Assembly: GCF_003334815.1 (NCBI RefSeq)
Contig: NZ_QOWO01000126.1
Strand: one strand, 5' to 3'
DNA length: 592 nucleotides
From: Escherichia coli
GTDB lineage: Bacteria > Pseudomonadota > Gammaproteobacteria > Enterobacterales > Enterobacteriaceae
The position numbers and the translations under genes were made by a program. Of the stretch, positions 1 through 592 are shown one piece after another; position 1 is the first letter of the stretch; every line of letters starts with the position of its first letter. The notes below the pieces were generated by a model that did not search any database, was not told the DNA's origin, and saw only the letters and a list, made by a program, of their open reading frames with translations.

Positions 1-215
1 TTGCAGAATTAAGCCGCCGTTTCAGCTGCACGCTGGAGCACTGGTATGCCGAACAGGGCTGTGATTTCTGTGGCTGGCAGTTGTATGAGCGCGGAGAGCT
101 TGTTGATGTGCTGTGGGGGGAGCTGGAATGGTCTTCCCCGACAGATGATGATGAGCTGCCGGAAGTCACCGGACCTGCGTGGATAGTCGACAAGGTGGCG
201 CATTACGGTGGATGA
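1..215 (+). CDS. 3' end of a protein-coding gene, 5'-truncated by the window edge; hypothetical protein, last 70 codons plus TGA stop
   Basis: Only long open frame on + in this region (codons at 3,6,9...; stop TGA 213-215). Translation: AELSRRFSCTLEHWYAEQGCDFCGWQLYERGELVDVLWGELEWSSPTDDDELPEVTGPAWIVDKVAHYGG*. About 44% of codons start with G; codons are mostly enterobacterial-preferred (CTG, CCG, GCG, GAA). Six Trp, a Cys cluster (C-x10-C-x2-C) and an acidic DDDE tail. No in-window start, so not in the supplied ORF track. Followed 11 nt later by an intrinsic terminator. Product family not recognised. Confidence 0.7.
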   Translation, partial: AELSRRFSCTLEHWYAEQGCDFCGWQLYERGELVDVLWGELEWSSPTDDDELPEVTGPAWIVDKVAHYGG

Positions 216-225
216 AGTATGACGG

Positions 226-256
226 AGACGGGCGGGCAACCGCCCGTTTCTTTTCC
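226..256 (+). terminator. Rho-independent terminator of the upstream gene
   Basis: Perfect 7-bp GC stem 229-235 (CGGGCGG) with 240-246 (CCGCCCG) around a GCAA tetraloop (236-239), extendable by A228:T247, then T-rich tract TTTCTTTTCC (247-256). The reverse strand has no T-run after the hairpin, so it is unidirectional for +. Sits 11 nt after the TGA stop. Confidence 0.7.
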
Positions 257-316
257 GGTAAAGGATGTCGCCATGCTCCTCTTTTTACTGCGCCGGCTGA
301 CGCGGCGCGGCATAAA

Positions 317-328
317 CGCTGCCTGTGG
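317..328. repeat. Left arm of perfect 12-bp long-range inverted repeat (CGCTGCCTGTGG)
   Basis: 317-328 CGCTGCCTGTGG is the exact reverse complement of 529-540 CCACAGGCAGCG. Flanking bases on both sides do not pair (A316/G541, T329/C528), so the repeat is exactly 12 bp. Confidence 0.85.
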
Positions 329-358
329 TCAGTGTCCCGCGTCCGGCGGGCACGGGAC

Positions 359-420
359 GGGCGCTTTTACCGCTCCCGGCTGGCGTCGGTGACAGTGTAC
401 GCCAGCCCGTCGCCCTTTTC
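359..420 (+). terminator. Internal terminator-like or attenuator-like nested hairpin followed by a T-tract
   Basis: Perfect 9-bp stem 378-386 (GGCTGGCGT) with 399-407 (ACGCCAGCC), 12-nt loop; outer 5-bp helix 359-363 (GGGCG) with 411-415 (CGCCC); immediately followed by TTTTCT (416-421). The T-tract is short (4 T), so termination efficiency is uncertain. Confidence 0.35.
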
Positions 421-528
421 TGATGAACGCCCTTCAAGCCGCTTTCGCGGCATAGCCTTGCCGTCAAAAAGACGACGGCTGCGGTATTCCACGGTCGGCC
501 TGACCCGTTACCGGACGCGGTGAACAGC

Positions 529-540
529 CCACAGGCAGCG
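529..540. repeat. Right arm of perfect 12-bp long-range inverted repeat (CCACAGGCAGCG)
   Basis: Exact reverse complement of 317-328; the arms are separated by 200 nt. Its first 7 nt (CCACAGG) recur at 552-558. Confidence 0.85.
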
Positions 541-546
541 GGGAAC

Positions 547-578
547 GGGCACCACAGGGGTGCCCTCCCGGTGCCCTC
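547..578 (+). repeat. Hairpin (GGGCACC/GGTGCCC) plus tandem direct repeat GGTGCCCTC x2, just upstream of the RBS
   Basis: 547-553 GGGCACC pairs with 559-565 GGTGCCC (7 bp, 5-nt loop ACAGG). GGTGCCCTC occurs at 559-567 and again at 570-578, separated by CC (period 11), so 547-553 can pair with either copy. Confidence 0.7.
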
Positions 579-585
579 TGTAAGA

Positions 586-592
586 GAAGGAG
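586..592 (+). promoter_or_regulatory. Shine-Dalgarno sequence (GAAGGAG) for a downstream gene whose start codon lies beyond the window
   Basis: AAGGAG at 587-592 matches the core SD consensus and sits at the 3' edge; a start codon would be expected about 5-9 nt downstream, outside the window, so it cannot be confirmed. Confidence 0.45.

Follow-up and report, generated by a model that had tools for sequence, protein, structure and literature searches.

The GC-rich spacer upstream of the M.EcoGIX methylase gene as a probable class 3 single-stranded DNA promoter of IncI1/IncF plasmids

In the minus-strand origin of filamentous phages (M13/f1) and in ssoA of rolling-circle plasmids, folded single-stranded DNA mimics −35 and −10 boxes and recruits sigma-70 RNA polymerase. 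These origins yield a short primer RNA for DNA synthesis and no mRNA, and in this they differ from the element described here. Devices of the same kind, in the same plasmid region, are the class 1 single-stranded DNA (ssDNA) promoters Frpo and ssi1-3 (Masai and Arai 1997; Bates et al. 1999; Nasim et al. 2004). They are transferred-strand stem-loops of ~330 nt that are recognised by host RNA polymerase, are active only while single-stranded and drive leading-region genes. Class 2 hairpins, located 5′ of klcA/ardB and ardA and including ssp2 of plasmid F and the 'Frpo-prime 4' candidate (Samuel et al. 2024), have promoter elements (TTGCAT-N15-TAAGAT) in their 3′ arm, and the −10 is mismatched.

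According to Wen et al. (NAR 2025, PMC12672017), transcription of pESBL was profiled minutes after transfer, and six induced operons were found, each preceded by a large hairpin. As described there, three of these hairpins are of the known ssi1-3/Frpo type (class 1), two, 5′ of klcA and ardA, form class 2, and the one 5′ of M.EcoGIX is the class 3 ssDNA promoter. The same study separates class 2 from class 3, documents zygotic induction of the M.EcoGIX operon by RNA-seq, maps its start site by 5′ RACE and gives classes 2 and 3 as conserved in F. The F promoters have been named ssp1-3, and ssp3 was used as an ssDNA promoter 'of equivalent strength but with no roadblock activity' (bioRxiv 10.64898/2026.01.09.698686). 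Fomenkov et al. 2020 had earlier invoked 'Frpo (ssi) upstream of ecoGIXM'. Others have shown that the transferred strand enters the recipient single-stranded, that a GC-rich segment of ~270 nt folds on itself, and that the duplex-like stem is recognised by host RNA polymerase, so that the methylase is transcribed before the complementary strand is made. Conversion to double-stranded DNA removes the hairpin and switches the promoter off.

The 592-nt stretch of DNA analysed here (the window) lies in the conjugative leading region of IncI1/IncF plasmids, and the spacer within it is most probably (we estimate roughly 85%) the class 3 ssDNA promoter of these plasmids, ssp3 in F, used in the form of the folded transferred strand. 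The initial annotation's observation was correct, and the element is already known, from the class 3 report of Wen et al., the F ssp3 preprint and Fomenkov et al. 2020. The spacer follows a DUF1281-family gene with its stop codon at 213–215, spans 383 bp and reaches the methylase start codon 7 nt past the window end, at window position 599. The gene 3′ of it is M.EcoGIX, a single-strand-specific adenine methylase, and matches the NCBIfam DNA methyltransferase PRK13699 (E 4e-150). In the best-matching IncI1 plasmid the gene order is DUF1281 gene, spacer, methylase, klcA-type antirestriction gene, ssb, parB-like gene, psiB, psiA and ardA, with all leading-region genes on the plus strand and running up to nikA/nikB (NikB relaxase) and oriT. 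Since the transferred strand is the template of the leading-region genes, it corresponds to the minus strand of the window. Inverting oriT has been reported to place the methylase on the wrong strand.

The assignment to class 3 draws on homology, location and structure. The window is identical to pESBL-EA11 (NC_018659.1) at 578 of 592 nt (97.6% over the full length), with five differences inside the spacer (counted over 377 nt); identity is 95.1% to plasmid F and 99.8% to pAVS0969-B, the closest IncI1 plasmid. The spacer is thus homologous to the pESBL M.EcoGIX spacer, and it occupies the same locus as the class 3 hairpin and F ssp3, on the same strand and directly 5′ of the same methylase gene, co-oriented with the leading genes. 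The transferred strand forms a large stem-loop whose energy lies below −75 kcal/mol, the limit that PMC12672017 applies to segments of 300 nt. We found no substantive difference from the pESBL hairpin; the window represents another IncI1 plasmid.

The element differs in sequence from the other two classes. BLASTN at word size 7 against five known sequences detected no similarity to Frpo (ssiD) or ColIb-P9 ssi1-3 (best E 0.05), which indicates that it works like Frpo but lies outside that sequence family; the same search placed ssi3, at 99.4%, 5′ of ssb and 4 kb away in the same plasmid. Class 1 has an A/T-rich apical stem, whereas the element has a three-way junction and a GC-rich conserved core. 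Class 2, of which one hairpin was found 5′ of klcA in the same plasmid, shares region, orientation and size with the element, and a flanking GCGACATC-type motif is common to both. However, class 2 is a simple hairpin with an unrelated stem sequence and no helix A core, and the comparison with its sequence (CCCTTGCAT...GGCCCGGCTAAGAT...GGCACGGC) gave only weak 28-nt matches. In many other Enterobacterales a class-2-type hairpin stands 5′ of the methylase gene instead, which makes these promoters exchangeable cassettes.

Base composition had first drawn attention to this spacer. Computed per segment and as a sliding profile over the window, GC content is 57.2% in the coding segment 1–180 and 65.5% across 257–586 (70.8% in 301–420, 56.7% in 421–480, 67.9% in 481–592), so the non-coding part is indeed richer in GC than the coding part, as had been noted. 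For comparison, pESBL has 49.7% GC overall and a mean of 54.7% in its coding sequences. In the same plasmid, conventional spacers of the maintenance region have 35–45% GC as against 61–65% for three large leading-region spacers, which makes the reversal real and specific to the leading-region spacer class. The initial annotation offered two causes. Selection for secondary structure is upheld for the ssDNA of the transferred strand, given the covariation, the strand asymmetry and the published function, whereas structure at the RNA level is less likely; a foreign origin or a genomic island does not fit a leading-region locus that is plasmid-borne in ~99% of places and usually present once per replicon.

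Diverged copies of the spacer were located in genome contigs with the methylase protein as an anchor, and they are 72–82% identical in Citrobacter, Raoultella, Enterobacter, Erwinia, Edwardsiella and Hafnia. DNA and protein searches of plasmid collections gave no diverged homologue among the matches listed, which were near-identical. The consensus structure, derived from an alignment of 13 sequences that form essentially two clades, contains 86 pairs with 98.1% of cells paired. Compensatory changes occur in 14 pairs, compared with 1–4 when the partners are slid by 1–3 columns, and with essentially two clades they represent few independent events. Folded as ssDNA, the minus strand from 250 to 592 (343 nt) reaches −96.6 kcal/mol (z −5.9 versus shuffles). 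In all 13 homologues its stability exceeds that of the plus strand, with a mean difference of −4.8 kcal/mol; the consensus energy with DNA parameters is −60.4 for the minus and −51.7 for the plus strand, and G-T pairs are concentrated on the minus strand. Together, these strand differences favour folding of the transferred DNA strand rather than of an mRNA.

Table 1. Positions of genes, structural parts and proposed promoter elements in the window (descending coordinates follow the minus strand).
Feature	Position	Strand	Basis
DUF1281-family gene (Hp8 in pESBL), 3′ end	1..215	+	annotation; ORF ending ...VAHYGG*; PHROG 37043 match
Intrinsic-terminator-like hairpin, arms 225–235/240–250, then TTTCTTTT	224..255	+	inverted repeat, RNA fold
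Motif GATGTCGC (transferred strand GCGACATC), 3′ flank of the hairpin	264..271	+	invariant in 13 homologues
Whole folded element: closing helix GGAGC (279..275)/GTTCC (546..542), long stem P1, three-way junction	275..546	−	consensus structure, ssDNA fold
Alternative pairing competing with the main stem	293..349	not assigned	inverted repeat, homologue alignment
Stem P1, 3′ arm, proposed non-template side, pairing with 504–540	317..356	−	inverted repeat 317–346/511–540, covariation
Proposed −10 GACACT (CACACT in diverged homologues)	331..336	−	only mismatch-rich patch of P1
Helix B, variable side arm, with local hairpin 378–386/399–407 and loop TACACT... (399..394)	359..432	−	inverted repeat, helices 10–12
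Helix A, invariant core GACCGTGGAATA (496..485) and TATGCCGCGAAAGCGGCTTGAAGGGCG (454..428)	434..503	−	invariant columns
TTGA, first four bases of the proposed split −35, completed by CC (356..355)	434..437	−	junction geometry; pairs with TCAG 500–503
Stem P1, 5′ arm, proposed template side	504..540	−	inverted repeat, consensus structure, covariation
Predicted transcription start, leader of ~65 nt	531..534	+	~7 nt downstream of the proposed −10, on the opposite arm
Small conserved hairpin GGGCACC/GGTGCCC between the main hairpin and the ribosome-binding site	547..565	−	covariation, DNA fold
Ribosome-binding site GAGAAGGAG of the methylase gene	584..592	+	sequence

Support differs between the parts of this fold (Table 1). 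In stem P1, helices 4–6 include six pairs with compensatory changes, and the small hairpin (helix 2) has seven pairs that are 100% paired, four of them with compensatory changes, with a DNA fold z of −4.3. The local hairpin of helix B has 9-nt arms of 100% complementarity. At the base of helix A (TCA[AG]NNN paired with NNNTTGA), more than 15 different covarying combinations occur among metagenomic relatives. Taken in isolation with DNA parameters, the helix A region prefers small hairpins, including GCCGC-GAAA-GCGGC, and the junction is missing from some of the minimum-energy folds of single sequences. The GCGACATC-type motif also accompanies class-2-type hairpins and beta-proteobacterial elements. 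The strict invariance of the core GTGGAATA/TATGCCGCGAAAG and of GCGACATC is more than a plain sigma-70 promoter accounts for. An additional long palindrome had been described as enclosing the left repeat arm. Its inverted repeat is real (arms 293–305/337–349, 13 nt, 85% complementary in an inverted-repeat search), but it is a weaker competing pairing and not an enclosing feature: its pairing over the 13 homologues amounts to 82%, with a single compensatory position, as against 95–98% for the main stem. The terminator-like hairpin 5′ of the element (RNA fold −23.7 kcal/mol, z −3.7), which a simple promoter/terminator pattern scan did not flag, would block read-through and so insulate the methylase.

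How polymerase might read this structure is the subject of the model proposed here. If helix A stacks on P1, TTGA and CC would be joined across the three-way junction into the −35 box TTGACC; the stacked 3′ strand would read ...CGGC-TTGA/CC-CGTG... (slash, junction), with GGTCA(G/A) on the opposite arm as the partner of TTGACC. Neither TTGA nor CC varies among the 13 homologues or in six beta-proteobacterial loci. The proposed −10 lies 18 nt past the junction on the same arm, and in the consensus fold its A is unpaired and its final T sits in a T-T mismatch. This arrangement, TTGA/CC-N18-GACACT with unpaired A and T, is conserved; its boxes are predicted and have no linear match. The leader of the predicted transcript would hold the small covarying hairpin and the ribosome-binding site. 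In the duplex, the plus-strand equivalent CTGACC-N15-TGAACA lacks the two key −10 bases, which would explain why activity is confined to the single-stranded hairpin. To our knowledge, no split −35 of this junction-assembled kind has been described for a sigma-70 promoter, and Wen et al. may place the boxes and the start site elsewhere.

Weight-matrix and consensus pattern scans of the linear duplex revealed no convincing sigma-70 promoter on either strand. The proposed −10 is itself weak, with three of six matches to TATAAT, and the spacer between the proposed boxes measures 18–19 nt on one arm and 15 nt on the other. Two further readings were rejected by eye: TGGAAT..GC as a sigma-54 promoter has a spacing that is off by one, and CCCTTGAA as a sigma-32 promoter has no CCCCAT-type −10 at the right distance.

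Relatives of the element extend beyond the Enterobacterales. In Achromobacter, Bordetella and Paraburkholderia, the methylase loci have hairpins whose P1 sequences are unrelated but in which the core (GTGGAATAAAT...GTTTATGCCGCGAAAGCCCTTGAAG), the junction linkers (A, then GT) and TTGA/CC-N17-GACTGT or GATTGT are retained. When metagenomes were scanned for the invariant core, 120 stretches were recovered, which fall into 45 sequence clusters. The expected 5′ partner is present in ~108 matches; about one-sixth of the pattern matches have no GGAATA partner and resemble chance hits. The junction could be parsed in 21 sequences from nine groups, and 20 of the 21 have NANNNT 17–19 nt past it, a pattern almost absent at other offsets from 4 to 24. 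In two lineages TTGACA is perfect and is accompanied by CAATAT. The length of helix B ranges between 13 and 80 nt among the relatives, which fits an expendable side arm, and in most of them the core lies 139–146 nt from the start codon. The downstream gene encodes the methylase in 66 of 86 cases and a DUF1281 homologue in 13, with a RadC-like protein, SSB and unknown proteins also represented. It is possible, although doubtful when all its parts are taken jointly, that these features make up a portable module across Proteobacteria, consisting of a split −35 (TTGA plus C[C/A/G]), an expendable arm of 13–80 nt, a −10 of the form NANNNT pre-melted by mismatches, and the invariant helix A core GTGGAATA/TATGCCGCGAAAG, with its GCGAAAGC mini-hairpin sequence, as an upstream recognition element for the alpha subunits of polymerase or for a second factor. 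The junction-split −35 model and the relatives outside the Enterobacterales go beyond the class 3 account in the available part of PMC12672017.

Explanations of the spacer that involve no promoter were also weighed. RefSeq annotates a 'hypothetical protein' of ~103 aa (window 212–523) as a coding sequence in thousands of plasmids, but a real small protein here is extremely improbable. The ORFs of 103, 114 and 60 aa match no NCBIfam family, and their Arg/Pro/Gly-rich composition is that expected of GC-rich non-coding DNA. Homologues are separated by indels of 1, 2, 3 and 4 nt, those of 1, 2 and 4 nt breaking the frame, and F has a 1-nt insertion at 347/348; where a sub-ORF opens with ATG at 273, pESBL has GTG and F has GGG. 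The RefSeq 'hypothetical proteins' differ in extent between F and IncI1 plasmids, a different ORF being annotated in F, and the original pESBL annotation has no gene in the spacer. The lack of a family match, the indels of 1–4 nt and the differing annotations bear out the initial annotation, which had regarded the region as non-coding and its ORFs as spurious, and the RefSeq entries inside the element amount to misannotation in thousands of plasmids. A generic multi-copy intergenic repeat (REP/BIME-like), the alternative that had been named at the outset, or the mark of an acquired chromosomal island has virtually no chance of being the correct description. The spacer is GC-rich and palindromic, as REP elements are, and 64 of its places in complete E. 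coli assemblies are chromosomal. Yet in these assemblies, where 4731 records contain the sequence, 5327 of 5391 places in one count and 5362 of 5427 in another are plasmid-borne (~99%), with a median of one copy per genome and per record, and BLASTN found no paralogue in the rest of its own plasmid. At least 5000 plasmids of Escherichia, Klebsiella, Salmonella and Shigella in PLSDB carry it, with 95–99.7% identity among the matches listed. The element is locus-specific, always standing directly 5′ of the methylase gene in the leading region, near psiB, ssb, ardA and the NikB relaxase, and does not belong to the REP/BIME elements. A structure acting at the RNA level, whether a 5′ leader, a riboswitch-like element or a small RNA from either strand, is very unlikely. 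Both strands fold, with z about −5.9, and the hairpin 547–565 and the leader 531–592 fold well as RNA. However, scanning Rfam with permissive thresholds yielded no meaningful match and no family at threshold (best 19.7 and 19.3 bits against gathering scores of 60 and 138), the template strand with its G-T pairs folds better than the mRNA-sense strand in every homologue, and the promoter model puts the start site downstream of most of the hairpin.

Two other proposals keep the folded strand as the functional form. In one, the hairpin would serve mainly DNA replication, as an ssi site that primes the complementary strand or as a roadblock that delays duplex conversion, with expression secondary. 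In published work, transcripts from Frpo act as primers of DNA synthesis in vitro and those from F ssp1 do so in vivo, and F ssp2 is a replication roadblock resolved by UvrD (bioRxiv 10.64898/2026.01.09.698686). Promoter function alone leaves the invariant helix A core unexplained. We nevertheless consider a mainly replicative role rather improbable: in the same F study ssp3 has no roadblock activity, the element always lies at a fixed distance 5′ of a gene with a ribosome-binding site, and the operon is zygotically induced (PMC12672017). Priming and promoter roles are not mutually exclusive, and both can hold together. In the other proposal the promoter would lie elsewhere in the fold, with TACACT (399..394, in the loop of helix B) as −10, CAGAAA 17 nt upstream as −35 and a start at ~399 or ~495, or with a −35 TTGAAG running into helix B. 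Among linear sigma-70 matches on the transferred strand, CAGAAA-N17-TACACT scores highest (5.5), TA.A.T is invariant at the loop in the 13 homologues, and beta-proteobacterial helix B loops contain TACAAA or TATAAA. A promoter in helix B is nonetheless unlikely, since the diverged homologues have not kept CAGAAA, no template strand exists downstream of a −10 that sits in an apical loop, and among metagenomic relatives the arm varies from 13 to 80 nt with an unconserved loop sequence. On topology and on the unconserved −35, TACACT was rejected as the −10.

As a class 3 ssDNA promoter, the element belongs to the hairpin promoters that set the timing of the first minutes in which a plasmid becomes established: genes for anti-restriction and anti-SOS functions and for the methylase are expressed from the incoming single strand, and expression ceases once the DNA is duplex. 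This early expression helps resistance plasmids such as pESBL to pass restriction barriers. In genome scans, a spacer of ~380 bp that is GC-rich, palindromic and free of ORFs and lies in the leading region of a plasmid marks an ssDNA promoter and not an island or a REP element. What remains of value in the present analysis is the junction-split promoter model, which can be tested, and the wider occurrence of the core. If the model is true, point mutations could be used to dissect how sigma-70 polymerase reads folded ssDNA, and sequence and structure together would provide a signature for such promoters beyond the Enterobacterales.

The sequence GCGAAAGC is common to the core of the class 3 element, the single-stranded promoter hairpin upstream of the M.EcoGIX-family methylase, and to the unrelated class 1 (Frpo/ssi) elements. 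In ColIb-P9 ssi1-3, the 5′ end carries GGAGCGAAAGCTCC, within which GCGAAAGC is contained. GCGAAAGC is a DNA mini-hairpin of unusual stability. The neighbouring core segment includes CCCTTGAA/GGCTTGAA, which resembles the sigma-32 -35 consensus; at the spacing that a sigma-32 promoter would require, no fitting -10 was seen. The TA.A.T sequence at the helix B loop is invariant across the enterobacterial homologues; TACAAA or TATAAA occupies the corresponding loops of the beta-proteobacterial elements. The promoter model, built on a junction-split -35 and a -10, does not explain this conserved -10-like loop sequence.

Sequence features of the window
Feature	Window position	Strand	Remarks
Terminator-like hairpin, strong, with T-run	224-255		directly 3′ of the DUF1281 gene stop
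Motif GATGTCGC	264-271	plus	reads GCGACATC on the minus strand
-10-like TA.A.T (TACACT)	394-399	minus	5′ side of helix B loop
CTTGAAGGGCG	428-438	minus	class 3 core
GCGAAAGC	441-448	minus	part of invariant class 3 core
Direct repeat GGTGCCCTC, perfect, 9 nt	559-567 and 570-578		11 nt apart

The GATGTCGC motif is unchanged in all 13 of the 13 class 3 homologues, and it recurs at the equivalent flank of class-2-type (klcA/ardA-type) hairpins and of beta-proteobacterial elements; it bears only a superficial likeness to ATCCTG, the core of the nick site in MOBP oriTs. The GGTGCCCTC repeat pair lies just 5′ of the ribosome-binding site and overlaps a small conserved hairpin. On the opposite flank, the terminator-like hairpin, which was missed by a simple promoter/terminator scan, would prevent methylase expression once the plasmid is established as double-stranded DNA.

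The spacer 5′ of the DUF1281 gene in the best-matching IncI1 plasmid (L001, 7896-8312) also contains a class-2-like hairpin, TTGCAT-N15-TAACGT. This hairpin, a weak match to Samuel et al.'s candidate 'Frpo*1', is not one of the six promoters reported for pESBL. It is adjoined by a strong divergent promoter, TTGACT-N18-TAGAAT, which has a LexA-box-like CTGTATATGCATACAG and serves dinI-like/umuDC genes.

The enterobacterial plasmid methylase occurs at 88-100% identity in assemblies labelled Collinsella, Oscillibacter, Oscillospiraceae and Streptomyces morookaense (L006, L008, L015, L028, L029, L041), most likely through contamination or mis-binning. The 'arginase' feature listed beside 'hypothetical protein' in some plasmids matching the spacer (H42, H46, H94) looks like an ORF-calling artefact of GC-rich non-coding DNA, as does its neighbour.

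The class 3 core is repeated on some metagenomic contigs, which have two or three copies each (L050-L052, L057-L058, L094, L101, L138, L152, L158). These copies typically drive the methylase first and then a DUF1281 homologue about 1.3 kb further on, whereas the window's plasmid has its DUF1281 gene upstream of the class 3 element. In Klebsiella, Yersinia pestis, Cedecea, Lelliottia, Pantoea and others, a class-2-type hairpin about 400 nt upstream of the methylase takes the place of class 3 (L009-L011, L013-L016, L019, L021, L022, L030, L040). The methylase at these loci is the same one (85-93% identical), and its different hairpin type suggests that promoter cassettes are swapped between plasmids.
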